Positions 1 through 12,237 are shown, counted from the stretch's first letter. The stretch: DNA of 12,237 nt from an archaeon (GCA_043797265.1 JAZDPV010000010.1:1-12237), one strand, 5' to 3'. Numbers and translations are program-made. The notes: a model not told the origin generated them from the letters alone.

Positions 1-1
1 A

Positions 2-94
2 TCAAAAGGCGACACAATAAAATTCCAAGGAAGACGCGACACCTACAAAAACAAAGAACAAATCATCGTCGACAAATTAATATGCTCAACCTAA
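2..94 (+). CDS. 3' end of an OB-fold nucleic-acid-binding domain protein (partial, runs off the left edge)
   Basis: Frame 2 reads SKGDTIKFQGRRDTYKNKEQIIVDKLICST*, with TAA at 92-94. The G-D-x-I-x-x-x-G...Y...Q-I-x-x-x-x-L pattern is typical of OB-fold C-terminal strands. It overlaps the next ATG at 82 and is not in the supplied ORF track. Confidence 0.55.
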   Translation, partial: SKGDTIKFQGRRDTYKNKEQIIVDKLICST

Positions 95-1272
95 TCCTCC
101 CTCTGCTCCTTGGTGTGCTTTCCGGAACCCTAACAGGCCTCACCCCCGGCATCCACATCAACCTCATCGCCATATTCCTCCTCTCTCTCGCAACCATCTC
201 TCAATTCCAACCAATCACCCTAATTATTTTCATTGTGGCGATGGCGACAACTCACACATTCCTCGACTTCATCCCCGCAATTTTTCTTGGCGCTCCCGAC
301 GAAGACACCGGGCTCGGAACCCTCCCTGGCCACGAACTCCTTCTCGCCGGCAACGGACACCACGCCCTAAAACTCACGCTCATCGGCTCGACCATCGCGA
401 CGATTTCCCTTTTCCTAATCGTCCCCATCTTCCTAATTATCATCCCAAAAATTTTCCCGTTCCTCCAGCGCATGATGGCGTTCATCCTCGTCTGGGCCGT
501 TATTTTTCTAATCTACAGCGAAAAACAATCCAAAATAAAAGCAATACTCATATTCATTCTCGCCGGCTTCGTCGGTCTCGCCACTTTAAACCTTGATATC
601 AAACAACCCCTCCTCCCGCTCCTTACCGGACTCTTCGGAACCTCGACGATAATCCACTCAATCAAATCCAAAACAATAATCCCAAAACAAAAAATCCAAA
701 AACTAAACCTCGACAAAAAAGAACTAATCAAGCCAACCCTTGCAACAATTCTCGTCTCGCCAATTTGTTCTTTCTTCCCCGGTCTCGGCTCATCCCAGGC
801 CGCAATCATCGGCTCCGAAATCACTGGCAAACTAAACCGCGAACAATTCCTCGTCCTCCTCGGCTCAGTCAACACAATCGTCATGTCAATCTCCTTCGTC
901 ACGCTATTCCTCATCCAAAAATCCCGGACCGGCGCCGCGTTCGCCATCTCCCAAATCACAACACTATCGACGACAATTCTAATCACAATCTTCATCACAA
1001 TAATTCTATCAACAATTCTCGCAATCCCCATCGCCATCACAATCTCAAAACTCATCGCCAAAAACATCCACAAAATCCCCTACGCAAAAATATCGACAAC
1101 AATCCTCATCTTCCTAATTATAATTATATTCTTCCTCACCGGACCACTCGGGCTAATCACCCTCGCTGTCACAACAACAATCGGGCTGACCTGCATCGAA
1201 TTTCAAACCCGCCGAAGTTTCCTTATGGGCGCAATCCTTATCCCAACAATAATTTTTTATCTGCCATTCTAA
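82..1272 (+). CDS. TctA-family (archaeal DUF112/COG1784-type) multi-pass membrane protein, tripartite tricarboxylate transporter permease-like; substrate unknown
   Basis: 396 aa and very hydrophobic. Family motifs include GLTPGIHIN, THTFLDFIPAIFLGAPD, LPGH, GLFG, PGLGSS and SRTGA. The two halves echo each other (PGIH / PGLG). Confidence 0.8.
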   Translation: MLNLILPLLLGVLSGTLTGLTPGIHINLIAIFLLSLATISQFQPITLIIFIVAMATTHTFLDFIPAIFLGAPDEDTGLGTLPGHELLLAGNGHHALKLTLIGSTIATISLFLIVPIFLIIIPKIFPFLQRMMAFILVWAVIFLIYSEKQSKIKAILIFILAGFVGLATLNLDIKQPLLPLLTGLFGTSTIIHSIKSKTIIPKQKIQKLNLDKKELIKPTLATILVSPICSFFPGLGSSQAAIIGSEITGKLNREQFLVLLGSVNTIVMSISFVTLFLIQKSRTGAAFAISQITTLSTTILITIFITIILSTILAIPIAITISKLIAKNIHKIPYAKISTTILIFLIIIIFFLTGPLGLITLAVTTTIGLTCIEFQTRRSFLMGAILIPTIIFYLPF

Positions 1273-1283
1273 AAATATATAAA
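1271..1283 (+). promoter_or_regulatory. Putative archaeal BRE/TATA promoter for 1306..1518 and ybjQ (leaderless)
   Basis: AAAAA followed by TATATAAA (1276-1283), 23-30 nt upstream of the ATG at 1306. No Shine-Dalgarno sequence. Confidence 0.55.
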
Positions 1284-1305
1284 CATCGTCAAACTAAATA
1301 CTAAT

Positions 1306-1518
1306 ATGGTAAAAAGCGCAACAATAACCGGAATAGCAATAATCATCTTCGGCGTTTGGATATCTCTCGAAATTCTCGCCAGCAAAGACGCACCCCTCTG
1401 GGTTCAAATCTACCCAACAATAATAATAATCGTGGGCATCACACTAATTGCCCTCCGTAAAAAAGAAAATGAAATAGAACAAAGGAAAGATATTAAAACA
1501 AAAAAATCCAACCACTAA
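1306..1518 (+). CDS. Small hypothetical membrane protein (two transmembrane helices, basic C-terminal tail)
   Basis: 70 aa with two hydrophobic segments (ITGIAIIIFGVWISL and IYPTIIIIVGITLIAL). A TATA box lies upstream, and the stop is 1 nt before the ybjQ ATG. Confidence 0.7.
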   Translation: MVKSATITGIAIIIFGVWISLEILASKDAPLWVQIYPTIIIIVGITLIALRKKENEIEQRKDIKTKKSNH

Positions 1519-1519
1519 C

Positions 1520-1843
1520 ATGAAAGAACTAATCACTACAACCACAATGGAAATCCCAGGAAGACAAATTATAAAAATCCTTGGCGTCGCAAAAGGCAAT
1601 ACAATCCGGGCAAGACACGTCGGACGAGACATCGCAGCCGGATTCAAAAACCTCGTCGGTGGCGAAATAAAATCTTATACCGAAATGACAACTCAAGCAC
1701 GAGAAGAAGCATTCAACCGGATGGTAAACGACGCAATCTCGATGGGCGCCGACGCAATCGTCGGAATCCGCTACTCAACCTCAATGATTATGACTGGCGC
1801 CGCCGAAATGCTCGCTTATGGCACAGCAGTAAAGTTAAAATAA
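1520..1843 (+). CDS. ybjQ: YbjQ/UPF0145 family protein (putative heavy-metal binding)
   Basis: 107 aa with the family motifs TTxxIPG, GRDIAAGFKNLVGGEIKSY, AREEAFNRM, GADAIVGIRY and AYGTAV. Confidence 0.92.
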   Translation: MKELITTTTMEIPGRQIIKILGVAKGNTIRARHVGRDIAAGFKNLVGGEIKSYTEMTTQAREEAFNRMVNDAISMGADAIVGIRYSTSMIMTGAAEMLAYGTAVKLK

Positions 1844-1908
1844 ACACAATTCCCAATCCATGCCATACCATCCTTTTTCTATTCAGTCAAACCCCAAAAA
1901 TTTTTCTT

Positions 1909-1944
1909 ATCCGCGAAATCCACAAAATCCTTCTCATCCGTGTT
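1909..1944. repeat. Degenerate 9-bp-period repeat (ATCC-N5) x4
   Basis: atccgcgaa atccacaaa atccttctc atccgtgtt. ATCC recurs at 1909, 1918, 1927 and 1936 in the ybjQ/dnaE convergent spacer. Confidence 0.5.
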
Positions 1945-2053
1945 GCCCCATCTTCAACCAAACTCCCAGCACAAATAAACTTTGCTCAACCAAATTCTTC
2001 TCATCCAATCAACATCTCACCCAAAACCCCCCTCAATAAAATCACTTCCAAAA

Positions 2054-5000
2054 TCAAACCGCCTCGCACACAAGCACACTCTTCGCAATAAACGCATTCC
2101 CAAATTCCTCACTCTCTTTAAACTTCCCCGCAATCCTAACACCGTCCCCCTCCTTCACCATCCTGCCTCCAAAACATTCCGCAAAATCCCTCGGGAAAAT
2201 CGTCACCTTCAACTCCCCACTCTTGTTAACAATATCCATGAACGCCATGTCGTCCCCGCTCTTCGTAACAATCTGGCTAAACCTTTTCACTATCCCAAAA
2301 ACTTCCGTCTCCATATCTTCCTTCAAACTATCAAACGAACTATAATCCCCATTCTTCGACTCAATATAAGCATCAATCGGATGCCCCGAAACACAAACTC
2401 CCAAAAGCTCCGACTCCAAAGCCAGCATATCCTTCAACGCCATCTGTGGCAAATCCGGATACTCGACCTTCTTCGCGACACCGCCAAACAAAGTCATCTG
2501 CTTCTCCGCCGAACTAACCTCCTTCCCGACGCTCTCATAAACTTTCAACAAACTCGCCCGATTTATCCCCAACTCATCAAAACACCCGACCGAAATCAAA
2601 TTATGGCAAATCCTTTTATTCACCTTCGACAAATCAACCCTATTAATAAAATCCTGATAAGAAGAATATGGCCTCCCCGCCATAATCCTCGCCAACGCCT
2701 CCGCCCCGACATTCTTAATCCCAGACAACCCAACACGAATAACCCTCTCCCCATCCTTTTCCTCGACGCTAAACGACTCCTCCGAAGTATTAATATCCGG
2801 ATGCAAAATCCTAATCCCCTCGCCCCTCGCCGCCCCCAAATAAAACGCCAATTTATCCGGGTCTCCAACCGCCGAAGAAATCGTCGCCGCATAAAACTCA
2901 ACCGGATAATACTTCTTCAAATACGCCGTCCGATAAGAAATTAAAGCATACGCCGCCGCATGCGACTTATTAAAAGAATACGCCGCAAACTTCACAATAT
3001 CATCCCACAATTTATCAACATCCTCTCGCTTCATCCCCGAATACTCAACACACCCATCCCTAAACTGCCTCTCCATCTTCTCCATCAAATCCAACTTCTT
3101 CTTCCCAATCGCCTTCCTCAAAACATCCGAGTCCCCTGCGCTAAAACCAGCCAACGCCCTCGACAACTGCATCACCTGTTCCTGATAAACCATAATCCCA
3201 TAAGTCGACGCCAAAATTTCCTTCGCCTTCGAATGCGGATAAGTCACACTCTCGCGCCCATGCTTCCGATTCGCATAAGTCTCCAAATATTGCATCGGCC
3301 CCGGACGATACAACGCAACAATCGCAATTATATCATCAAAGCAAGTCGGCTGAATCATTCTCAATGTCTTCCTCATCCCCTCGCTTTCAATCTGAAAAAC
3401 CCCGACGCTCTTCGCCTCCCTCAACATCTTATAAACCCCGTCGTCGTCCAGCGGAATATTCTCAAGCCACTCGCCATCTTTCCCAATCACATCCAAAACT
3501 TTCTTAATTACATTCAGCGTCTCAAGCCCCAGCATGTCAAACTTAACCAAGCCATACCTCTCAATATCCGGGCCCTCCACCTGCGTAATCATATTCCCGT
3601 CCTTCACGTACGTCGGTATATATTCATTAATCCCCTCCCTCCCCCAAACAACCCCGCAAGCATGAACCCCCTTGTGCCGCACGCACCCCTCCAGCCTCAT
3701 CGCAACCTCAAACAACTTCTCATTCCTCCTCCTAAATTCCCGCAACTGCTCGGCCCCGGCCGTCAACCTCCCGTCTCTCTCCGCATCCAAACTTTCCTGA
3801 ATCGTCTTCTCACTAACCAGCTTTGTAATCGCATTCGCCTCTTCAAACGGCACACGAAAAACTCTCATCACATCCTTCAAAACCGCCTTCGCCGACATCG
3901 TCCCAAACGTCCCAATCAACGACACTTTCTCCTCGCCATACTTCTTCTTCACATAACCCAAAACTATATCCTTGTCCCCAAAGTCAACATCAAAATCCGG
4001 CAACGAAATTCTATCGGGATTCAAAAACCTTTCAAATAACAATCCCAACGCCAATGGATCCAGTTGGGTAATCCCAAGCGAATAAGCAACAATCGAACCC
4101 GCACCCGAACCACGCCCCGGCCCAACCTGGCAAAACTTTTTTGCCTCCCGGATAAAATCAGCGACGATAAGGAAATACGCCTCGAACCCCATCTTCTCAA
4201 TTACCCCAAGTTCATACTCCATCCGCGCAACCGCCTCGCCGTAATTTTCCCGCCCGCCATAAATCCTGTCAACCCCCTCCCTGCACAACTTATACAAATA
4301 ATCTTTATGACTCATCCCCCCCGGCAACTCAAAATGCGGAAAAATCGTCTCACCCATCTCCAGCTCAACATTACACCGCTCAGCAATCTCCGTCGACAAA
4401 TCAACCCACTCCGGATTATCCAGGAACAAATCCCTAACCTCCTCCTCGCTCTTAATCCAATACCCCGCCCCATCAAACTTAAACCGCTCCTCCTGATTCA
4501 TATCTCCATTCGTCTGAATCGCCAACATCACCTCGTGTGAATAAGCATCCTCCTCTTTCAAGAAATGCGAATCTACCGTCGCCACGATTTTAATTCCCAT
4601 CTCATTCGCAACTTTCTTGTAAAAAATCCTGACAACTTCCTCCTCGGCAATCCCGTGATTCTGCGCCTCTAAATAAAAATTCTCCTTTCCAAAAATATCA
4701 ACATACTCGCCAATCAACTCCCTCGCCTTATTTTCGTCCCCGTCGATAACCGCCTGCGCGACATCATTCGCGATACACGCGCTCATGCAAATCAATCCCT
4801 TCGAATATTTTCTCAACGTTTCCTTGTCTAATCTTGGACGATAATAAAACCCCTCGCCATTCGCAATCGAAACCAATTTAATCAAATTCTTGTAACCCTC
4901 AAAATCCCTCGCCAACAAATTCAAATGATAATTCTTCACGTCCTTATCCCTCGCCCTCATATCGTCGGTAATATACGCCTCAAACCCAAAAATCAATTTC

Positions 5001-5176
5001 ACCCCCGCCTTCTTCGCCAAATCATATTTCTTAATCACCGCCCCCATGTTCCCGTGCTCGGTAATCGCGACCGCGCTCTGCCCCAACTCCTTCACCCTCT
5101 CAAACAACTCCTCAATCTTCGTCGCCCCATCCAACAACGAATACTCCGTATGCAAATGCAAATGACAAAACCCCAT
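2054..5176 (-). CDS. dnaE: DNA polymerase III alpha subunit (family C, DnaE-type) with PHP domain, palm, HhH, clamp-binding motif and OB fold; no C-terminal tau-binding domain
   Basis: Motifs HLHLHTEYSLLDG, TEHG, GFYYRPRLD, VGPGRGSGAGS, LLFERFLNPDR, catalytic PDFDVD (3983-4000) and KFD (3536-3544), ALYRPGP, YGIMVYQEQ, FNKSHAAAY, IKNVG and QMTLF (2486-2500). The start is placed at ATG 5176 (MGFCHLH, about 1040 aa) rather than TTG 5194. Confidence 0.96.
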   Translation of the reverse strand: MGFCHLHLHTEYSLLDGATKIEELFERVKELGQSAVAITEHGNMGAVIKKYDLAKKAGVKLIFGFEAYITDDMRARDKDVKNYHLNLLARDFEGYKNLIKLVSIANGEGFYYRPRLDKETLRKYSKGLICMSACIANDVAQAVIDGDENKARELIGEYVDIFGKENFYLEAQNHGIAEEEVVRIFYKKVANEMGIKIVATVDSHFLKEEDAYSHEVMLAIQTNGDMNQEERFKFDGAGYWIKSEEEVRDLFLDNPEWVDLSTEIAERCNVELEMGETIFPHFELPGGMSHKDYLYKLCREGVDRIYGGRENYGEAVARMEYELGVIEKMGFEAYFLIVADFIREAKKFCQVGPGRGSGAGSIVAYSLGITQLDPLALGLLFERFLNPDRISLPDFDVDFGDKDIVLGYVKKKYGEEKVSLIGTFGTMSAKAVLKDVMRVFRVPFEEANAITKLVSEKTIQESLDAERDGRLTAGAEQLREFRRRNEKLFEVAMRLEGCVRHKGVHACGVVWGREGINEYIPTYVKDGNMITQVEGPDIERYGLVKFDMLGLETLNVIKKVLDVIGKDGEWLENIPLDDDGVYKMLREAKSVGVFQIESEGMRKTLRMIQPTCFDDIIAIVALYRPGPMQYLETYANRKHGRESVTYPHSKAKEILASTYGIMVYQEQVMQLSRALAGFSAGDSDVLRKAIGKKKLDLMEKMERQFRDGCVEYSGMKREDVDKLWDDIVKFAAYSFNKSHAAAYALISYRTAYLKKYYPVEFYAATISSAVGDPDKLAFYLGAARGEGIRILHPDINTSEESFSVEEKDGERVIRVGLSGIKNVGAEALARIMAGRPYSSYQDFINRVDLSKVNKRICHNLISVGCFDELGINRASLLKVYESVGKEVSSAEKQMTLFGGVAKKVEYPDLPQMALKDMLALESELLGVCVSGHPIDAYIESKNGDYSSFDSLKEDMETEVFGIVKRFSQIVTKSGDDMAFMDIVNKSGELKVTIFPRDFAECFGGRMVKEGDGVRIAGKFKESEEFGNAFIAKSVLVCEAV

Positions 5177-5197
5177 GAAGAAAAAAATTCCCAACCC

Positions 5198-5212
5198 TTT
5201 ATATTTATTATT
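5198..5212 (-). promoter_or_regulatory. Putative archaeal TATA promoter of dnaE (leaderless)
   Basis: The minus strand reads AATAATAAATATAAA. AATATAAA (5205-5198) lies 22-29 nt upstream of ATG 5176, and the DNA just before the ATG is T-rich with no Shine-Dalgarno sequence. Confidence 0.5.
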
Positions 5213-5226
5213 ATACTATTCTAAAA

Positions 5227-5553
5227 TTACCTTTGTTCTTCCACTACAAAATAAGTATTAGTCCAAGAACCCCCAACATAAACCTTACTTCCATTATCAG
5301 TCTTAAATGGCCCATTAGTATTATAAATCCTATTTTCACCTAATTGAATCCAGTACTTATCCTCAGCTAAAATTCTATCATCTCGTTTAACGCTCGCAGG
5401 AGCCCCTTGAAGCTTAAATTTATACACATCACTTATTCCCCTTGACCCCCAAAAATCACCAATTGCACCAGCAAATAATGTGGCACATCCAATAATCACA
5501 CCACCAACTGCCGTGATTAAAGCACCCTTGCCTATTTTTTCTAAACTTCCCAT
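5227..5553 (-). CDS. Hypothetical protein with an N-terminal transmembrane/signal segment
   Basis: 108 aa with an ATG start and its own BRE-TATA promoter. A hydrophobic segment (ALITAVGGVIIGCATLFAGAI) precedes a beta-rich soluble region. Confidence 0.7.
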   Translation of the reverse strand: MGSLEKIGKGALITAVGGVIIGCATLFAGAIGDFWGSRGISDVYKFKLQGAPASVKRDDRILAEDKYWIQLGENRIYNTNGPFKTDNGSKVYVGGSWTNTYFVVEEQR

Positions 5554-5575
5554 AAAAATAACACAAATCCATTAG

Positions 5576-5590
5576 TTATAAAACTTTTCC
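5576..5590 (-). promoter_or_regulatory. Archaeal BRE-TATA promoter for 5227..5553
   Basis: The minus strand reads GGAAAAG-TTTTATAA, a canonical purine-rich BRE plus TATA box, with the TATA 23-30 nt upstream of ATG 5553. Confidence 0.7.
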
Positions 5591-5619
5591 TAAAATTTCA
5601 CCACCAACCAACAAAAACA

Positions 5620-5663
5620 TCCACAAGAAATACGGCGTCGAAGACGACGTAATTTTTTGTGGA
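5620..5663. repeat. Imperfect inverted repeat (about 20-bp stem, GAA loop)
   Basis: TCCACAAGAAATACGGCGTC-GAA-GACGACGTAATTTTTTGTGGA, with two mismatches and one bulge. Confidence 0.75.
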
Positions 5664-5750
5664 ATAAAATCGAATCAATAACTCAACTAGAAATCCTATT
5701 CATCCTACTTTTTACCATACTAATCAAAACTCAACTTCAACTAAATGAAA

Positions 5751-5777
5751 TCCGTGTTTGTCCGTGTTTGTCCGTGT
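5751..5777. repeat. 10-bp tandem repeat TCCGTGTTTG x2.7
   Basis: tccgtgtttg tccgtgtttg tccgtgt, intergenic and downstream of DP2. Confidence 0.85.
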
Positions 5778-5830
5778 GCCATTATTCTTAAAATAAAAGT
5801 CACACAAATCAAAAACTAACATCCTTATTC

Positions 5831-5851
5831 TAAAAATCCTAAAGATAAAAA
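5831..5851 (-). terminator. Possible oligo-T archaeal terminator after DP2
   Basis: The minus strand directly after the TAG reads TTTTTATCTTTAGGATTTTTA. Confidence 0.35.
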
Positions 5852-8800
5852 CTAATCCTCAATCCCAAAAATCCCCCCAACATATTCCTCCAACAACTCA
5901 AAAACTTCCCACGTATACGACGGAATATTATAATTCTTCACCAACTCCCTCGCCATCGGCAAATACTTTTTTATCGAGCCCTCCGAAATTGTAAAAATAA
6001 TTTTCCCCTTGCACTTATGACAAACCCCCGCCAACGGCGGCCGCCTAAACTTCTCATTGCAATTCGCACATCTAAATCCCTGCCTCCCAAACTTCCTCAA
6101 ATTCCCTCCAATATCCCGAATAAAATGCCTCTCTAAAATCAACCTCGCGACGTCATCCTTGTCAACCGCCCGAATCTTCCCGACCAACTCCATCTCCGCC
6201 GCAACCTTATCTTTCATCGTCGGCAAACTCTTGTAAACCCCATTTGCATTCCCCAAATTAATATCACTCGTATCATGACTAAACCCCGCCCCCACGAACG
6301 GCTCGACCCCCATCTTCAACCTATCCTTAACCAACTCAACCCGGCACTCACTCGAATGCTCCCCTCTCTCAGCAACCTCATAAAACTCCAAAGAATATTT
6401 ACCCCCGCTCTCCAAAGACAAAATCTGGTCATCAACTTCCCCCGCCCGAATCCTCGCATTCAAAACCAAGGGCGCATCCTGATTCCCACCGCGATGCCCC
6501 GGCAAAAATTTCCTCGAAAAATTCAACAACACATCCATCAACAACATCACCGCCGCCTCATCCCCGTCGCAATCACGCCTCATCGCCGCATGCATATATG
6601 GCGACGCAATCACCCCCTGCATCCTGCCAAATCCAATAATCCGCCCAACAACCCCCGCACAATTATGCGGCGCCATACAAACAACCAACTGCCCAACCAA
6701 ATCCCCCCTCGACTTCAAATTATAAAATCTCTTCATCCCATAAAACCTACTCAACTCCTCATCAACAAAATTCGCCACATTAAAAAAAACATCGCCACCC
6801 CTCTCCGCCATCTCAGAACAATTAGGCAAAACAATATCGTGCGGTCTCAACTCCAAAATCTGATCATCCCCAACCAAATCGCTCCCATAAATATCCCTCT
6901 CGTACCCCAAGATCTTCAATTTTTCAACCCCCACGCCAACTTCCCTCGGCTTAAAATGCGTCAACGGAATTTCCGTCCCATCATATCTCACCGTCCCATC
7001 TTTATTGACACACAAACCAAACTTCGCCCTCAAAACCCCCTTCCCTAAATCCTCAACATCCTTCCCCTCACTCACCATCCCAGAAATCCCCTTAATCAAG
7101 GGCGGCACCTCATACAACTCAAGCCCTAATTTCTTACACGCCCCCTCAAAATAATCTTTAACCCCAATCTTTCTCCTAAAAAATCCAAAACAATTATTAT
7201 GTAACTTACAAAAATCACTTTTCACCCCACAACATTCTCGACAATAAAAACCCCTTTTCGACTTCACCCCACATTTTTCACAGGTTAAATAAATCCCCTC
7301 ATTACCACACCCACATTTATAAATCGGAAAATCAGCGTCGATAAAACCAACACCAACCGCATCTTGTATACTCTTCAACCTCCCGCCCTGCTTTCCAACC
7401 GGGAACAAAACATTCGGGCTCCCGCCGATATCCCTCAATTTCGCCTTCTCCGGCCGCCCCATCCTCGCCCCAATAAATGTCCCAGCCTTATCCTTAATCT
7501 CAAACTCGCACAACCCATTCACAATTTCCAAAACGCCTTTAACACCCGTCCCCCCAATCTCTAAATCCAAACCCTCCCCCTCTTTTATTTTGTCAATCCC
7601 AAGATTAATCAAAAAAGCCCGCGCATCTTTATCAACAACAACATCCCCGCCCACAACATCATGCTCAACTCCCAAAATTTCCAAAGCCCTCTTGCCAACC
7701 TTAAACTCATCCGCAAAAGGCAATATTAATTTCCCATTCTCCCAAGCCGATTTGTTCAACCACCCAACCAATCCAAAAAAATCCTCGACGCCAATCTGGC
7801 TCCAATAAAAAATATATTTAGGATGCAATGGCAAACCAAACTTCCGGCTTAATTCAATCGCCTCATCCAAACCAACATTCTCCGGATCCTGAATCCTGAA
7901 TCCTGAATCCTCGGCGACTAAAGACGCCGCCCACCACTCCTCAACATACCCCGGCTTCAACAAATCAAAATTCCTATCAACCACATCCCCCATCGGGAAC
8001 AACATGTCCCCAAGATAAATAATCTCGTCGACATCTTTGTAAATCCGCCTCGCCTCCTCATAATCATAAACTCTCTTGACACTCCCATTCTTCATTTTCA
8101 CAATCGGCCCATCAATAGAATCACAAGAAGTAATAATACAGCCCTTCGTCGGCTTCTCAATTTTCAACTGAGTCCCATGCGACAAAAACCCATTCGTAAT
8201 CCCCATCGTCGCTGGATGAACCGAAACCGCGCTAAACCCCGACGTCCGCCCGCGTCCATATCTCAACCTAAACCCACCACTCCGAGACGGATGCCCATAA
8301 ACCGGCCGCCCCGCAACCAAATCTTTAATATAAGTCGCCTCGATATTTTTCTCGCCGGCCTCACGCTTTTTATGCAAAACAGTATAATCCTCCAACCAAT
8401 CAAACCCTGTACACTTCAACCCATTCTTTTTGCAAGACCTCAATCGCCCCACCGCCTTCTCCGCTTTCTGCGCCAGCCCCTCTGAAAAAATCAAGCACAT
8501 CCCGCCCCGAATAAAATTTGTCCCCACCCTCGGCAAATCCCTATAACTCGAAACCTCTTTCCTACTCGTTGGCTCACCATCAATCTGAATCGGCAACCGC
8601 GCCGCCAAAAATCTCATCTCCTCTTCCGTCGGCAAATACGCTAAATTCGCAACCCTCTCATGATAATCCTTGTTCTCAACAACATATCTTTTAATCTCGT
8701 CCTCGCTCACATCATACTTCGCATAACCAAAATATTCCCTCAAATAATCAATCAACATCAAAACAACACAAGTCGCCGTCGTCCCCGCCGACCGAATCGG

Positions 8801-9253
8801 GCCACTAAAACTCGCAATAAAATAATACTTATCCTCTCGCGTCTTCCCCAACTTCAAACCAGTATAACCCTCAATCGGCGACGAAACAACACCCAAAGTC
8901 ATATAGGCAAACCCAACCCGAATCCCCACATCAATCGCCTCCAACTTATCTTTAAATTTACAAAACTTCTCCTCGGCAATTTCCCGTGCAATCACAAAAC
9001 TAACAGTCGTATCCAACTGCCCATACTTCTTTTCTAACTCCTCCATCCTCCTCACAATTTTCTCAACCGGCAAATCCGGATAAACAACACAAACCAACCT
9101 CACCGCCTTCTCAACCATCGTCGCCGCCAAAGAAACCTCAACATCGGCAACCGGATCCAAACCCAATGCCCGCGCCCTCCTCGCAACCCCATACGCGCGA
9201 ACAACCCCGCTACTTAAATCTTCAAAATAACCATCAACATCCCACTTAAACAT
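5852..9253 (-). CDS. polC: DNA polymerase D large subunit (DP2, DNA polymerase II large subunit), no intein
   Basis: Motifs GPIRSAGTTA, RGGMCL, YIKDLVAGRP, FRLRYGR, GYVEEWW, IGARMGRPEKA, KDGTVRYD, APHNCAGVVGRIIGF and catalytic RRDCDGDE (6557-6580), plus Cys zinc modules including C-terminal CANC...CHKC. The start is placed at ATG 9253 (MFKW, 1133 aa) after the G-rich RBS-like GGGGGGGGAGA; it overlaps the DP1 end by 8 nt. polC here is the archaeal symbol for DP2. Confidence 0.96.
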   Translation of the reverse strand: MFKWDVDGYFEDLSSGVVRAYGVARRARALGLDPVADVEVSLAATMVEKAVRLVCVVYPDLPVEKIVRRMEELEKKYGQLDTTVSFVIAREIAEEKFCKFKDKLEAIDVGIRVGFAYMTLGVVSSPIEGYTGLKLGKTREDKYYFIASFSGPIRSAGTTATCVVLMLIDYLREYFGYAKYDVSEDEIKRYVVENKDYHERVANLAYLPTEEEMRFLAARLPIQIDGEPTSRKEVSSYRDLPRVGTNFIRGGMCLIFSEGLAQKAEKAVGRLRSCKKNGLKCTGFDWLEDYTVLHKKREAGEKNIEATYIKDLVAGRPVYGHPSRSGGFRLRYGRGRTSGFSAVSVHPATMGITNGFLSHGTQLKIEKPTKGCIITSCDSIDGPIVKMKNGSVKRVYDYEEARRIYKDVDEIIYLGDMLFPMGDVVDRNFDLLKPGYVEEWWAASLVAEDSGFRIQDPENVGLDEAIELSRKFGLPLHPKYIFYWSQIGVEDFFGLVGWLNKSAWENGKLILPFADEFKVGKRALEILGVEHDVVGGDVVVDKDARAFLINLGIDKIKEGEGLDLEIGGTGVKGVLEIVNGLCEFEIKDKAGTFIGARMGRPEKAKLRDIGGSPNVLFPVGKQGGRLKSIQDAVGVGFIDADFPIYKCGCGNEGIYLTCEKCGVKSKRGFYCRECCGVKSDFCKLHNNCFGFFRRKIGVKDYFEGACKKLGLELYEVPPLIKGISGMVSEGKDVEDLGKGVLRAKFGLCVNKDGTVRYDGTEIPLTHFKPREVGVGVEKLKILGYERDIYGSDLVGDDQILELRPHDIVLPNCSEMAERGGDVFFNVANFVDEELSRFYGMKRFYNLKSRGDLVGQLVVCMAPHNCAGVVGRIIGFGRMQGVIASPYMHAAMRRDCDGDEAAVMLLMDVLLNFSRKFLPGHRGGNQDAPLVLNARIRAGEVDDQILSLESGGKYSLEFYEVAERGEHSSECRVELVKDRLKMGVEPFVGAGFSHDTSDINLGNANGVYKSLPTMKDKVAAEMELVGKIRAVDKDDVARLILERHFIRDIGGNLRKFGRQGFRCANCNEKFRRPPLAGVCHKCKGKIIFTISEGSIKKYLPMARELVKNYNIPSYTWEVFELLEEYVGGIFGIED
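7886..7911. repeat. Heptamer tandem repeat ATCCTGA x3.7 inside the DP2 coding sequence
   Basis: atcctga atcctga atcctga atcct, encoding EDSGFRIQD just after YVEEWW. Confidence 0.85.
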
Positions 9254-10727
9254 TCTCCCCCCCCAACTTGCAAACCAAATCATCACCTTCTTCCCATTTA
9301 ATTTTGTCTTCACTAAAATCAACAATTTTAATTTCCCGAGTTTTCAAATTAAACAACGGCACCCGACATGGCTCCGGCACATTACCAACCCTCTCTTCAA
9401 ATGGAGTCGTCGACTGCCAACACGAACTCGCAACCATCAAAATATTATTATAACAATCAACCTCTGCCCGATGCTGATCACCCGTCGCAACAATATCCGG
9501 CACAATGTCAATCACCATCGGGTCCACCTCACATAAAACATAATCCATCAACCCATACATCGGCGCCAAATGACCACACCTCAACATTTCCCTAACAACT
9601 CTCGTCGGAGACCTGTGCCCAAAATTAACCCTAATATTTTCAGTCTCATCTACAAACCTATTAATACTCGCCCCGTGATACATCAATATCCTAAACCCGC
9701 CCACATCCACCAAAGCCGGACTAGTAACCAACTTTAAATTCTTCATCTTATACAACTCACCCGCCCACTTTTCTGGAATCACTTTTTGCGGCTCCCCTAC
9801 CCAAACAGCATCATGCTGCCCGGCACACATCGCAATCTCTAAATCCTTTCTTATCTTCCCAAAAATCTCGCCCAACTTTTTATACTGCCCCTTAATGTCT
9901 TTAATATTCAACCAACCCTCCTGCCCCGAATAAACCCCGACACCATCAACCATATCCCCGACTAAAACCAAATACTTAACCTTCCGCGCAATCGCCCTCT
10001 GCCTCTCATCCCCAACCTCACCATTTAACCAATCAACAAATCTCAAAACATCCTTCTCTAAAAAATTCCTCGAACCAACGTGAAAATCCCCACTAAAAGC
10101 GATATACTCATCAACGTCCCCGTATTTTTCCTTTTCTAAACCAACATCCGGGAAAATAATATCATTAACAAACAACATCTCACCAGAACCCGAAACCCGG
10201 AACAAAACAACATCGTCCAGCATTAAATTCTTCGCCTTGTCAAATAAATCCCTCCTGTCCTGATTCACTAAAACAACAACCCTCCCCGTCAAATCTTCCA
10301 CTTCAATCAATAAATTTTTATTTTTTGTAATATTTTTTTTAACCACCATCGCAACAATATTATAAACCCCACCACCTCCCCCAATCCTCCGAATCGAACT
10401 CATGTTTTCAACCCCCGTCGCCAACATCCCACTCAACACCTCATACCTCGAACGAAAATACCGAACAAAATCTCCAACCCCAATTTTTCTTGATAAAAAC
10501 TTTGGCGTCGACAACAATTTAATATTTAACCCGTCCCTCTTTCTTTCTAATTTTAAAATATACTCATCAAAAATCTTTTTTGTGATTACCCTTTCCTTAA
10601 CACCAGATTTAACTAGCCCATTAATAATTTCAGTAACCTCATCGTCGCTCTTCTTAGATAAAATCCCAAAAACATCTCTATCTAAAAAAAATCCCCTACT
10701 CGCAAACAATTCCAACATCCCTATCAT
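9246..10727 (-). CDS. polB: DNA polymerase D small subunit (DP1; OB fold plus calcineurin-like phosphoesterase/proofreading exonuclease)
   Basis: OB region with TKNKNLLIEVEDLTG, then DFHVGS, GDMVDGVGVY, GQHDA, YHG, HLAPMYG, TGDQH and SCWQ..T.FE. It lies between cdc6 and DP2, as in the conserved euryarchaeal-type cluster. The start is uncertain (ATG 10748, 10727 or 10718). polB here is the archaeal symbol for DP1. Confidence 0.92.
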   Translation of the reverse strand: MIGMLELFASRGFFLDRDVFGILSKKSDDEVTEIINGLVKSGVKERVITKKIFDEYILKLERKRDGLNIKLLSTPKFLSRKIGVGDFVRYFRSRYEVLSGMLATGVENMSSIRRIGGGGGVYNIVAMVVKKNITKNKNLLIEVEDLTGRVVVLVNQDRRDLFDKAKNLMLDDVVLFRVSGSGEMLFVNDIIFPDVGLEKEKYGDVDEYIAFSGDFHVGSRNFLEKDVLRFVDWLNGEVGDERQRAIARKVKYLVLVGDMVDGVGVYSGQEGWLNIKDIKGQYKKLGEIFGKIRKDLEIAMCAGQHDAVWVGEPQKVIPEKWAGELYKMKNLKLVTSPALVDVGGFRILMYHGASINRFVDETENIRVNFGHRSPTRVVREMLRCGHLAPMYGLMDYVLCEVDPMVIDIVPDIVATGDQHRAEVDCYNNILMVASSCWQSTTPFEERVGNVPEPCRVPLFNLKTREIKIVDFSEDKIKWEEGDDLVCKLGGENV

Positions 10728-10736
10728 ATTAAAATC

Positions 10737-10767
10737 GAGGAACCACATTCCGACGGGAATTATCCTC
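10737..10767. other. Small intergenic stem-loop between cdc6 and DP1
   Basis: Outer stem GAGGA (10737-41) / TCCTC (10763-67) and inner stem ATTCC (10747-51) / GGAAT (10756-60) around a 4-nt loop. Confidence 0.45.
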
Positions 10768-10775
10768 AGTTTATT

Positions 10776-11984
10776 CTAAAGCCCCAACGAATCAACAAGA
10801 ATCGCCTCAGCCTTATCAAATAAATTATTAGGAATCGACAACTTAATCTCTCGGGTCCTGCCATGCCGCCCCTTTGAAATAACCTTAGCATTAATCAGTC
10901 CCAACATATCTATTTCCGCCAAAATATCAGAAATCCTCCTCTGTGTCAAAACATCAGCCCTAACCCGCGCACAAATATCTTGATAATAATTATAAACATC
11001 TCCCGTAAAAAATCTATCCTTCTCTCCTCTCTCTCTTGTTAATCTCATAATCGAATACATCACTAACTGAAACTGCTTCGGCTCACCCTCAATAATATCC
11101 AAAATTTTGTCTCTCTCTATTTTCAAATTTGCCAAATCAATATATTCCTCCTCTATTTTTTTCTTCCCGTCTCTTTCACTTAATTCCCCCGCAATCCTCA
11201 ATAAATCCAGGGCTCTCCTAGCGTCCCCATGCTCCCTAGCCGCATAAGCCGCACATTTAGCTATAACACCATCAATAACAACATCTTTCTTAAACGCCTC
11301 AACACAACGCTCCCTTAAAATATCCTGTAATTGAATCGCATTATAAGGATGAAAAATAAACTCCTCCTCCCCTAAACTCGACCTTACCCTTGGATCAATA
11401 TTTTCCAAAAAAGTTACCTCATTCGAAATACCAATCAATGAAATCTGCGCCTGACTCAATTCCTGATTTAACCTCGTCAACGAATACAAAAAACCATCAC
11501 TCATTTTTTTTACCGCATGGTCAATTTCATCAAAAATAAAAACAATTAACTGTTTCTTTTTATCAACCAACTCTATAAATTTAGACCAAACTTTATCCGT
11601 CGGCAACCCCGTCGCCGGGACATCTCCACCAAGCTGCCCAATTAATGCAGCCAAAATCCTATACTCAGTATCAGCAACCTTCTTTAATTTACAATTTAAA
11701 TATTCAAATCTTACATCCACCCCTAATATCTCAGATTTCTTAATTAATTGATCTCGAACATATAAAACCGACAAAGTTTTTCCCGTACCTGTTTTACCAT
11801 AAACAAATAAATTACTCGGCCGTTCACCCCTTAATGTCGAAGCCAAAATTGAAGCAATTGATTTTATTTGTTTATCTCTATGTGGAATAGACCCTGGTGT
11901 ATAACGAACCTGTAAAACCCCCTTATTCCTAAATAAACTATTATTCAAAGCCGAATCAAAAATTTCTCCTAATTCAACACCCAT
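10776..11984 (-). CDS. cdc6: Orc1/Cdc6 replication initiator (AAA+ ATPase plus winged helix)
   Basis: Motifs YTPGSIPHRD, Walker A GKTGTGKT, Walker B IFDEID, ISN, RVRSSL, GDARRALDLLR and winged-helix wing SKGRHGRTR. The start is placed at ATG 11984 (402 aa), about 25 nt downstream of a TATA box. Confidence 0.96.
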   Translation of the reverse strand: MGVELGEIFDSALNNSLFRNKGVLQVRYTPGSIPHRDKQIKSIASILASTLRGERPSNLFVYGKTGTGKTLSVLYVRDQLIKKSEILGVDVRFEYLNCKLKKVADTEYRILAALIGQLGGDVPATGLPTDKVWSKFIELVDKKKQLIVFIFDEIDHAVKKMSDGFLYSLTRLNQELSQAQISLIGISNEVTFLENIDPRVRSSLGEEEFIFHPYNAIQLQDILRERCVEAFKKDVVIDGVIAKCAAYAAREHGDARRALDLLRIAGELSERDGKKKIEEEYIDLANLKIERDKILDIIEGEPKQFQLVMYSIMRLTRERGEKDRFFTGDVYNYYQDICARVRADVLTQRRISDILAEIDMLGLINAKVISKGRHGRTREIKLSIPNNLFDKAEAILVDSLGL

Positions 11985-12008
11985 TTCATACAACAAACAA
12001 ATCAAAAC

Positions 12009-12022
12009 TATTTAAACCTTCA
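12009..12022 (-). promoter_or_regulatory. Archaeal BRE-TATA promoter of the cdc6-DP1-DP2 cluster (leaderless)
   Basis: The minus strand reads TGAAGG-TTTAAATA, with the TATA (12016-12009) 25-32 nt upstream of ATG 11984. Confidence 0.65.
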
Positions 12023-12046
12023 TATACACGAAAACATATTTTATAT

Positions 12047-12237
12047 ACCCCTATTTCATTTCCACTAACTATAATATAATAATACAAATTTTAAACAAAA
12101 ACAAAAATTTTCTTCGATAAATATAACCATTATAAAAACACTCACACCCTTATTTCATTTCCAAAAGAAATAAATTCTAAAACAAATTATGTTAAAAAAT
12201 AAACATCTTATAAAACATATACTTTATTATATATATT
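12047..12237. other. Putative chromosomal replication origin (oriC): two ORB-like repeats and AT-rich DNA; probably continues beyond the window
   Basis: Direct repeats ACCCCTATTTCATTTCCA (12047-12064) and ACCCTTATTTCATTTCCA (12146-12163) are 17/18 identical. On the minus strand they read TGGAAATGAAATA(G/A)GGGT, resembling the ORB TGGAAA...G-string. The DNA is non-coding, very AT-rich and directly upstream of cdc6. Confidence 0.75.

Follow-up and report, generated by a model that had tools for sequence, protein, structure and literature searches.

Bacteria replicate their DNA with family C polymerases and archaea with polymerases of families D and B; the two sets are unrelated, and this split is a main argument that DNA replication evolved twice. 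The locus analyzed here, contig JAZDPV010000010.1 (positions 1 to 12,237) of the archaeal genome GCA_043797265.1, encodes both kinds of enzyme: dnaE, a gene for a bacterial-type family C polymerase, lies beside the genes for the two subunits of the archaeal family D polymerase PolD (DP1, small; DP2, large). We refer to this whole stretch of 12,237 nt as the window. The closest described case is that of Castelle and co-workers (Front Microbiol 2021; PMC8204110), whose account of DNA polymerase III genes in DPANN archaea includes two Pacearchaeota copies that adjoin the genes for the small and large PolD subunits (there "DNA polymerase II"), describes the DPANN sequences as highly divergent from bacterial ones, and proposes horizontal transfer. 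An earlier, model-generated note on the window (hereafter the original prediction) left open whether the arrangement had been described; in its bare form it is already in print, if briefly (PMC8204110). The published treatment comprises three verified sequences in one paragraph, its two Pacearchaeota may or may not belong to the clade studied here, and its wording on these genes makes no mention of a polymerase fusion, loss of the PCNA-interacting protein (PIP) motif of DP2, decay of DP1, a missing beta clamp, an empty site, or strand skew. Beyond that paper, our literature search found no further paper on DnaE in these archaea and no report of the breadth or age of the association, of empty-site polymorphism, of missing partners, of coupled PolD decay, or of strand bias.

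Two better-known enzymes frame the comparison. Relative to canonical PolD, as described for Pyrococcus abyssi and Thermococcus kodakarensis (PMC4996933, PMC10721889, PMC7594292), the window encodes all three DP2 domains, the catalytic Asp-Gly-Asp, the Mre11-like motifs of DP1, and an adjoining cdc6. It differs from the canonical enzyme as set out in those sources in that the window DP2 lacks a PIP box, while some DnaE-bearing relatives have the DP1 catalytic histidine or metal ligands replaced and four of the five species with a DP2-DnaE fusion lack the zinc modules ahead of the DP2 catalytic barrel. The DnaE protein, for its part, resembles the DnaE1 enzymes of Thermus aquaticus (2HPI) and Mycobacterium tuberculosis (7PU7) in domain order, catalytic aspartates, a full set of PHP ligands, and an internal clamp pentapeptide. 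Unlike them, it is encoded in a PolD cluster, lacks their C-terminal residues, and comes from a genome in which no beta clamp, tau/gamma, or delta was found.

Replication forks with two replicative polymerases, which divide the work by hand-off or by strand specialization, are known from Bacillota (PolC and DnaE) and from eukaryotes (Pol epsilon and Pol delta). By analogy, the archaeal pair may work alike, with two polymerases per fork, without being a member of either system; here the pair would unite enzymes of families D and C, drawn from two domains of life, and in five species they are one polypeptide. The finding is real and partly known, and its new part is the evidence for a hybrid family D-family C replicase.

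A DnaE1-type polymerase in an archaeal PolD cluster

The window is the whole of contig C10 in a 625-kb, 18-contig genome (83% complete, 0.08% contaminated). The order along its minus strand is cdc6, DP1, DP2, a 108-aa open reading frame (ORF), and dnaE, and the features that bear on the polymerases are as follows.

10776-12005, minus strand: orc1/cdc6 replication initiator, 409 aa (Pfam Cdc6_C, Cdc6_lid, and AAA; TIGR02928 at 409 bits versus a cut-off of 181)
9246-10748, minus strand: PolD small subunit DP1, 500 aa, Mre11-like proofreading exonuclease (Pfam and NCBIfam profile matches)
5852-9325, minus strand: PolD large subunit DP2, 1157 aa, with the catalytic CDGDE at aa 919 (all three DP2 domains by Pfam)
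2054-5194, minus strand: dnaE, DnaE1-type family C polymerase, 1046 aa, without internal stop (Pfam, NCBIfam, and structure alignments)
4655-5164, minus strand: DnaE PHP domain, aa 11-180 (metal ligands kept in the alignment to T. aquaticus Pol III alpha)
3989-3997, minus strand: DnaE catalytic D400 and D402 (the third Asp lies further on, in KFDMLGL)
2486-2500, minus strand: DnaE clamp-binding motif QMTLF, aa 899-903 (aligns with the pentapeptide of Escherichia coli and M. tuberculosis alpha)

As the original prediction had it, and with every coordinate holding, dnaE is full length and uninterrupted and lies co-oriented about 0.7 kb downstream of DP2; the gap is 657 nt, and the two genes are separate rather than one frame.

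The encoded protein has the usual order of family C domains, with Pfam matches to PHP (residues 11 to 180), DNA_pol3_alpha (299 to 556), finger (559 to 717), and HHH_6 (793 to 882) that are all above threshold (E-values of 3e-77 to 4e-25), followed by a C-terminal OB fold (965 to 1028) that at 17.6 bits falls under its 27-bit cut-off. It passes the NCBIfam model NF004226, "DNA polymerase III subunit alpha" (1124 bits versus a cut-off of 1002), fails both the DnaE2 model NF004225 (568 versus 939) and the PolC model NF001688 (184 versus 873), and matches the 2HPI and 7PU7 structures with E-values of 2e-224 to 3e-194. It is a DnaE1-type family C polymerase and not a member of the bacterial Pol III holoenzyme. 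The three catalytic aspartates, D400, D402, and that of the KFDMLGL motif, correspond to D463, D465, and D618 of T. aquaticus (numbers counted from the alignment), and none of them varies among the 29 archaeal DnaE sequences. The His, Asp, Glu, and Cys metal ligands of the PHP domain are likewise kept in every archaeal copy whose assembly covers them (in genome G061 the first motif is missing, at the end of a contig), and on this pattern the domain may be an intrinsic 3'-5' exonuclease; in M. tuberculosis DnaE1, the PHP domain proofreads. The Q..LF clamp motif is kept in 27 of 28 copies from the genus and in 5/5 from sister genera. The archaeal protein ends after the OB fold and has no counterpart of the last 90 to 130 residues of bacterial alpha subunits: against the alpha subunits of E. 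coli, M. tuberculosis, and T. aquaticus (1160, 1184, and 1220 residues), the alignment ends at positions 1033, 1074, and 1087, respectively. The missing part is the one that binds tau in bacteria. One relative has, just upstream of dnaE (G050:C15 3431-3780), two short stretches that resemble the first 60 residues of the protein (44 to 47% identity) and look like partial tandem duplicates.

A search with the palm domain found dnaE in 29 of the 49 genomes of the window's genus. Twenty-six of the 29 have it directly downstream of DP2 on the same contig (cdc6-DP1-DP2-dnaE-(ybjQ)-tctA), and in the remaining three DP2 and dnaE are both at contig ends. An order-wide sample of 401 genomes gave DnaE in 32, and the nine matches outside the genus were fetched; six of the nine, from four sister genera of the family, sit in the same cluster with DnaE 68 to 71% identical, and the other three (G276, G317, G096) are unrelated DnaE (27 to 39% identical) away from PolD. 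Synteny of this breadth, which the original prediction had proposed to check, disposes of its alternative, a coincidental proximity, given that among the DnaE-bearing genomes of the genus the order is broken only by contig ends and that it recurs in six sister-genus genomes. The interval between DP2 and dnaE is 40 to 1040 nt in unfused species other than G004, where about 3.2 kb is inserted between the two genes (G004:C20 10599-13789). Nine DnaE-less species show an empty site, with DP2 followed directly by ybjQ and/or tctA. A second DnaE in genome G020 (G020:C9:16001-36000; 28 to 42% identical) lies away from PolD on a weak-skew contig (-0.09); either contamination by this contig or an independent acquisition is the probable explanation, and the unrelated copies in G276, G317, and G096 likewise look like contamination or separate events.

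Evidence for the linkage comes from contig C10 and from 25 further genomes of the genus and six of the sister genera that share its gene order. Two sequencing runs share small word fractions with the window (0.08 for DNA, 0.05 for a metatranscriptome), and their contigs on the window are 150 to 270 nt long, come from relatives at about 88 to 99% identity, and are scattered over dnaE, DP2, DP1, and cdc6, with none bridging a junction; those from the RNA library are no proof of transcription. Among named records, a "Candidatus Woesearchaeota archaeon" genome comes nearest, with a DnaE that is 78% identical. The best bacterial proteins are only about 37 to 46% identical to the window DnaE, so the gene is not a fresh contaminant.

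The DnaE phylogeny (FastTree) comprised 29 archaeal sequences, 79 bacterial sequences drawn from the best 80 of a pattern scan and mostly from Clostridia, and the G020:C9 copy. All 29 archaeal sequences form one clade with a support of 100 on a long stem; the rows nearest to it are a Saccharimonadales sequence and the second copy of G020, both long-branched, and the donor lineage is not fixed by this tree. A single archaeal clade of bacterial type, with one entry, agrees with the horizontal acquisition proposed in the original prediction, which had also named archaeal monophyly as a sign of domestication. The internal branching of DnaE mirrors that of a DP2 tree rooted on five genomes of other families, in which the DnaE-bearing sister genera branch first and the genus then splits into four lineages: a 20-species DnaE-bearing clade; G020 with G057; G012; and a fourth lineage composed of a 12-species DnaE-less clade and a clade joining the five fused species with two DnaE-less ones. 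The simplest reading of these trees would be one ancient gain of dnaE followed by at least two losses.

Values of dN/dS from six species pairs (Nei-Gojobori; approximate, with dS of 0.6 to 1.3 and skewed composition) are 0.10 to 0.17 for DnaE, 0.15 to 0.29 for DP2, 0.19 to 0.33 for DP1, and 0.04 to 0.10 for Cdc6, and identity across genera is 68 to 71% for DnaE, 53 to 60% for DP2, and 35 to 50% for DP1. The dnaE gene is thus under strong purifying selection, more constrained than either PolD subunit and far from the dN/dS near 1 that the original prediction had associated with a gene lacking a functional role. Phage-like genes reported near DPANN DNA polymerase III genes (PMC8204110) and the unrelated DnaE away from PolD in some bins (G020:C9, G276, G317, G096; 27 to 41% identical) would suit a virus or mobile-element passenger that sits near the origin without a cellular role, but the gene considered here has an unchanged position in 26 of the genus's genomes and in six from sister genera, belongs to one clade that co-diverges with DP2 at a dN/dS of 0.10 to 0.17, and lies on a contig that shares the extreme skew of its whole genome and has no mobile-element genes in a Pfam scan of the window proteins, all of which makes such a passenger, or a chimera or contaminant, highly improbable. 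Chimerism and contamination in particular are ruled out for practical purposes by the order shared with relatives and the genome-wide skew on the contig.

Fusion with DP2 and changes in PolD

Five species (G006, G059, G060, G062, G064), which form one clade, encode DP2 and DnaE in a single stop-free frame of 2157 to 2266 codons, in genomes of 25 to 29% G+C, where stop codons are common. The linker between the two parts is 30 to 77 residues long, rich in Lys and Glu, and variable between species, and it begins immediately after the DP2 C terminus with KQLSLF, KQLELF, or a close variant. Eight protein clusters of 2153 to 2367 aa with both domain sets are present in JGI, NCBI, ENA, and Logan gene calls; Pfam searches of three of the eight recovered, in this order, DP2_N, DP2_central, DP2_cat, PHP, Pol III alpha, fingers, and HhH, with the OB fold in two. 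We found no paper that mentions a DP2-DnaE fusion. By the logic of gene fusions, the joining of DP2 to DnaE in one clade implies that the two likely cooperate also when encoded separately, as they are in the window, and the fused protein of these tiny Woesearchaeota-type archaea suggests a hybrid replication enzyme. The zinc module of eight Cys/His residues ahead of the DP2 catalytic barrel (columns 667 to 709 of the window DP2) is absent from four of the five fused species and is kept in G059.

The PolD subunits themselves have changed in DnaE-bearing lineages, beginning with the C terminus of DP2, whose PIP motif contacts PCNA in Thermococcales (PMC7594292). Where the region is available, the pattern Qxx[LIMV]xx[FWY] is present in 14/14 DnaE-less genomes of the genus and 5/5 outgroups, in an end that lies 13 to 14 residues past a conserved FG and typically reads EKQxxLKKWF. 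Among 27 unfused DnaE-bearing genomes, the pattern is present in 3, its hydrophobic part without the Gln in 4, and neither in 20. The tails of DP2 in DnaE-bearing genomes are cut at varied lengths (2 to 19 residues), suggesting several separate decays. The window DP2 ends in GIFGIED, 2 residues past the FG and without a PIP box, where DnaE-less relatives continue for 13 more residues to a QxxLxxWF end.

Similar changes affect the exonuclease subunit. The metal ligands of P. abyssi DP1 are D360, H362, D404, N450, H497, H560, and H562, and H451 is catalytically essential, H451A being the standard exonuclease-dead mutant (PMC10721889). At the position of H451, all 22 DnaE-less and outgroup sequences have His, all five fused species have Arg, and 4 of the 22 unfused DnaE-bearing species have Tyr or Asn. 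Of these same 22 species, 4 have lost H497 to another residue and 6 have a replacement at one or the other of the two positions, versus 0/22 among DnaE-less and outgroup sequences. Aligned to solved DP1 chains, the fused species G059 has D404N, N450D, H451R, and H560N, and G001 has changes at at least five of these positions. The window DP1 retains the DxH, GD, GxHD, and H motifs, with Gln at N450 and Asp at H560 as in DnaE-less members of the genus, and the site is intact both in the window genome and in the six sister-genus genomes.

The polymerase center of PolD has been kept throughout. The catalytic Asp-Gly-Asp of P. abyssi DP2 corresponds to D956 and D958 (PMC4996933), the window CDGDE aligns to NCDGDED of that protein, and CDGDE is present in all genomes that cover the region, those with the fusion included. 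Some DP2 frames are longer, at 1609 to 1649 aa (G013:C7, G043:C28, G054:C106) or 1262 aa (G024:C18), with an insertion of about 450 aa at or near CDGDE. The insertions are most likely inteins and make a query-anchored alignment unreliable there; the "CFGDE" of G054, the one apparent exception to CDGDE, lies at an intein boundary and is an artifact.

These changes could be taken to mean that DnaE is now the main replicase and that PolD is kept as a scaffold or primer-handling module linking primase, GINS, and MCM. DnaE does have the lowest dN/dS of the polymerases in the cluster and the highest identity across genera, PolD has lost its C-terminal PCNA hook and, in several DnaE-bearing lineages, its proofreading site too, and four of the five fused species are without the Cys-rich zinc module of DP2. 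We nevertheless consider this explanation unlikely, since CDGDE is kept in every species examined, fused ones included, DP2 is still under purifying selection (dN/dS of 0.15 to 0.29), and DP1 is intact in the window genome. The retention of the PolD polymerase center in every species argues for a division of labor rather than a replacement.

Replisome partners, putative origin, and strand bias

The bacterial partners of DnaE were not found alongside it. A search for the beta clamp (TIGR00663) across the genus gave no match in the 29 genomes that carry dnaE (69 to 100% complete), and the sole DnaN-like match in the genus (G017:C32:838-1839), at 70.6 bits and below the cut-off of 137.65, is in a DnaE-less genome. 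The window genome, at 83% completeness, yielded no beta clamp (PF00712), tau/gamma (PF12169), or delta (PF06144). MCM and PCNA are present in it; the RFC C-terminal domain PF08542 was not found at this completeness, and the clamp loader may be divergent. Matches to DnaB_C are all sub-threshold, as they are in archaeal controls.

The original prediction had proposed a role for dnaE in replication or repair, perhaps in place of a lost PolB. A role alongside PolD is argued for by the fusion and by the decay of PolD, but the replacement of PolB is not upheld: the window genome encodes a PolB of 802 aa with exonuclease and polymerase domains, and PolB occurs in 48 of the genus's 49 genomes, with or without dnaE, so dnaE is no stand-in for it. 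The same retention of both PolD and PolB, which leaves no obvious need for a third replication polymerase, could be read together with the loss of dnaE without loss of the lineage as the mark of a repair or damage-tolerance polymerase, like DnaE2/ImuC or the non-essential archaeal PolB, that is merely co-transcribed with replication genes. Such an enzyme seems to us quite unlikely, given that the protein fails the DnaE2 model NF004225 (568 versus 939) and passes NF004226 (imuA and imuB were not searched for), that its PHP metal ligands are complete, and that the DP2 fusion and the decay of the PolD hook and exonuclease occur only with dnaE, which is hard to explain for an occasional repair enzyme.

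A candidate archaeal partner is PCNA. A complex prediction for PCNA with DnaE residues 860 to 1046 scored 0.59 (best of three controls, 0.00), with contact agreement of at least 93% between runs, and a predicted local confidence (pLDDT) of at least 72 for the partner, from alignments that we made ourselves; no interface was returned. In a benchmark, 58 of 80 solved complexes reach that score, as do 2 of 110 mismatched pairs, with only 7 of the 80 solved complexes and both mismatches at scores of 0.60 or below. Complexes of PIP motifs with PCNA have already been solved, and the pass may therefore reflect likeness alone.

The remaining features of the window are these.

82-1272, plus strand: tctA, a flanking gene on the far side of the dnaE site
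1306-1518, plus strand: small LiaF-TM protein, a flanking gene on the far side of the dnaE site
1520-1843, plus strand: ybjQ, a flanking gene on the far side of the dnaE site
5227-5553, minus strand: 108-aa ORF in the DP2-dnaE spacer, without Pfam or NCBIfam match
12006-12237, no strand assigned: putative origin region of origin recognition box (ORB) type, the A+T-rich stretch on the upstream side of cdc6 as far as the contig end

The 108-aa ORF has no tblastn match in any of 60 related loci examined, and a search of 5.8 billion proteins gave just one relative, at 56% identity and from a 1-kb contig; judged by these searches, it is not a conserved member of the cluster and not part of the system. 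No Rfam family match was found within the window.

The spacer upstream of cdc6 (232 nt, 81% A+T, reaching the contig end) contains two copies of an 18-nt direct repeat (12047-12064 and 12146-12163, 94% alike), a repeat that recurs upstream of cdc6 in L104 (G023:C4), the closest of the relatives tested. These features fit a putative archaeal origin and are not proof of one. The link between the cluster and an origin, made in the original prediction, thus has an A+T-rich spacer with repeats beside cdc6 in its favor but is unproven, and GC skew shows no sign switch at the cluster in G005:C5 (181 kb), G023:C4, or G012:C3, each of which keeps one sign on both sides. We accordingly rejected the cdc6 spacer as a skew switch, no sign change being present at the cluster in relatives whose contigs span it.

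Absolute GC skew in the window genome is 0.29 to 0.53 across all 18 contigs, C10 included, and its sign reverses within none of them. Skew at third codon positions is +0.67 in ORFs on the G-rich strand (323 ORFs) and -0.57 in those on the C-rich strand (187 ORFs); it is independent of gene orientation, indicating that the bias belongs to the DNA strand and not to transcription. The 635-kb contig G062:C1 of a fused species has a strand-intrinsic skew that is positive from about 509 kb, the site of the cluster, to the contig end and again at 32 to 160 kb, near zero at 190 to 480 kb, and never clearly negative. The first 20 kb of this contig (G062:C1:1-20000) are one open frame of at least 6,666 codons that starts with 24-nt tandem repeats, a giant repetitive protein gene. 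Median strand-intrinsic third-position skew, taken from samples of 3.5 to 20 kb per locus in related species, is highest in unfused DnaE-bearing genomes (0.51, n = 19), followed by fused ones (0.36, n = 3), DnaE-less members of the genus (0.23, n = 16), and members of other families (0.05, n = 13). These data do not uphold a strict link of dnaE with strand skew, in that the DnaE-less G008 reaches 0.72 and the DnaE-bearing G020 only 0.08.

A skew of one sign could possibly come from unidirectional replication, from an origin elsewhere, or from another strand-specific cause. The nearest described parallel is the bacterial Microgenomates order UBA1400, in which, as reported, one strand is strongly G-poor over its whole length regardless of gene orientation, cumulative skew has no turning point, and unidirectional replication is proposed as a possible cause (PMC7143001). 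The archaeal trait is stronger than the one given in that report, with contig skew up to 0.53 and third-position skew of about 0.6. We found no report of such extreme skew in DPANN or Pacearchaeota, in a literature judged partly by titles and the openings of abstracts.

A proposed division of labor between PolD and DnaE

Our preferred reading, at a probability of roughly 60%, is that dnaE, bacterial in origin, is a real and functional gene, inherited vertically, that has been built into the PolD module and that its product would divide the work of synthesis with PolD. The fusion and the decay of PolD are confined to DnaE-bearing lineages, which points to a role for DnaE together with PolD. At the fork, DnaE would be a second polymerase tethered to PolD via the C-terminal end of DP2; it would ride on archaeal PCNA through its QxTLF motif, and its PHP domain would supply proofreading. 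PCNA binding and PHP proofreading by DnaE, as predicted here, could account for why the DP2 hook and, repeatedly, the DP1 exonuclease site could be lost. The split might be by task, with PolD working at primers and DnaE carrying out bulk synthesis, or by strand, with one strand for each enzyme.

A number of points weigh against this reading. It is built on sequence comparison and on a PCNA-DnaE complex prediction that lends it weak support, and that weakness counts on the other side. Absences mean "not found," all genomes being metagenome-assembled and 69 to 100% complete. The counts of PolD changes come from related species and represent few independent events, about three for DP1, with DP2 tails having decayed in several ways. 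DP1 is intact in the window, and the exonuclease argument therefore applies to relatives and not to the window organism. Retention of CDGDE in all species means that PolD has not wholly handed over synthesis. The gene has been lost from the 12-species clade and from G017 and G048, leaving a clean empty site of DP2-ybjQ-tctA, and such clean losses indicate that dnaE is dispensable where DP2 has kept its PIP box and DP1 its active site. Finally, the sister genera were picked for carrying dnaE, and the history of gain and then loss is not fully tested by them.

A bolder form of the proposal, possible though doubtful, is a hybrid holoenzyme in which PolD and DnaE are joined, covalently in one clade and otherwise via the DP2 C terminus, with both on PCNA but each on a different strand or step and with PHP proofreading replacing that of DP1. 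An asymmetric, possibly one-way fork of this kind would yield the G/C bias of one sign.

Whichever way the work is shared, a bacterial replicase has long been inherited inside an archaeal replication module in which no bacterial partners were found. If the two polymerases act together, these archaea would be a natural experiment in which core replisome parts were exchanged between domains, their fused protein would be a rare case of two unrelated polymerase active sites, and the lineage would be a tractable case for the fitting of a foreign polymerase to PCNA. The fused proteins are ready targets for expression and structure work, and the strand bias of one sign in the same genomes offers a route to link polymerase usage with mutation patterns.

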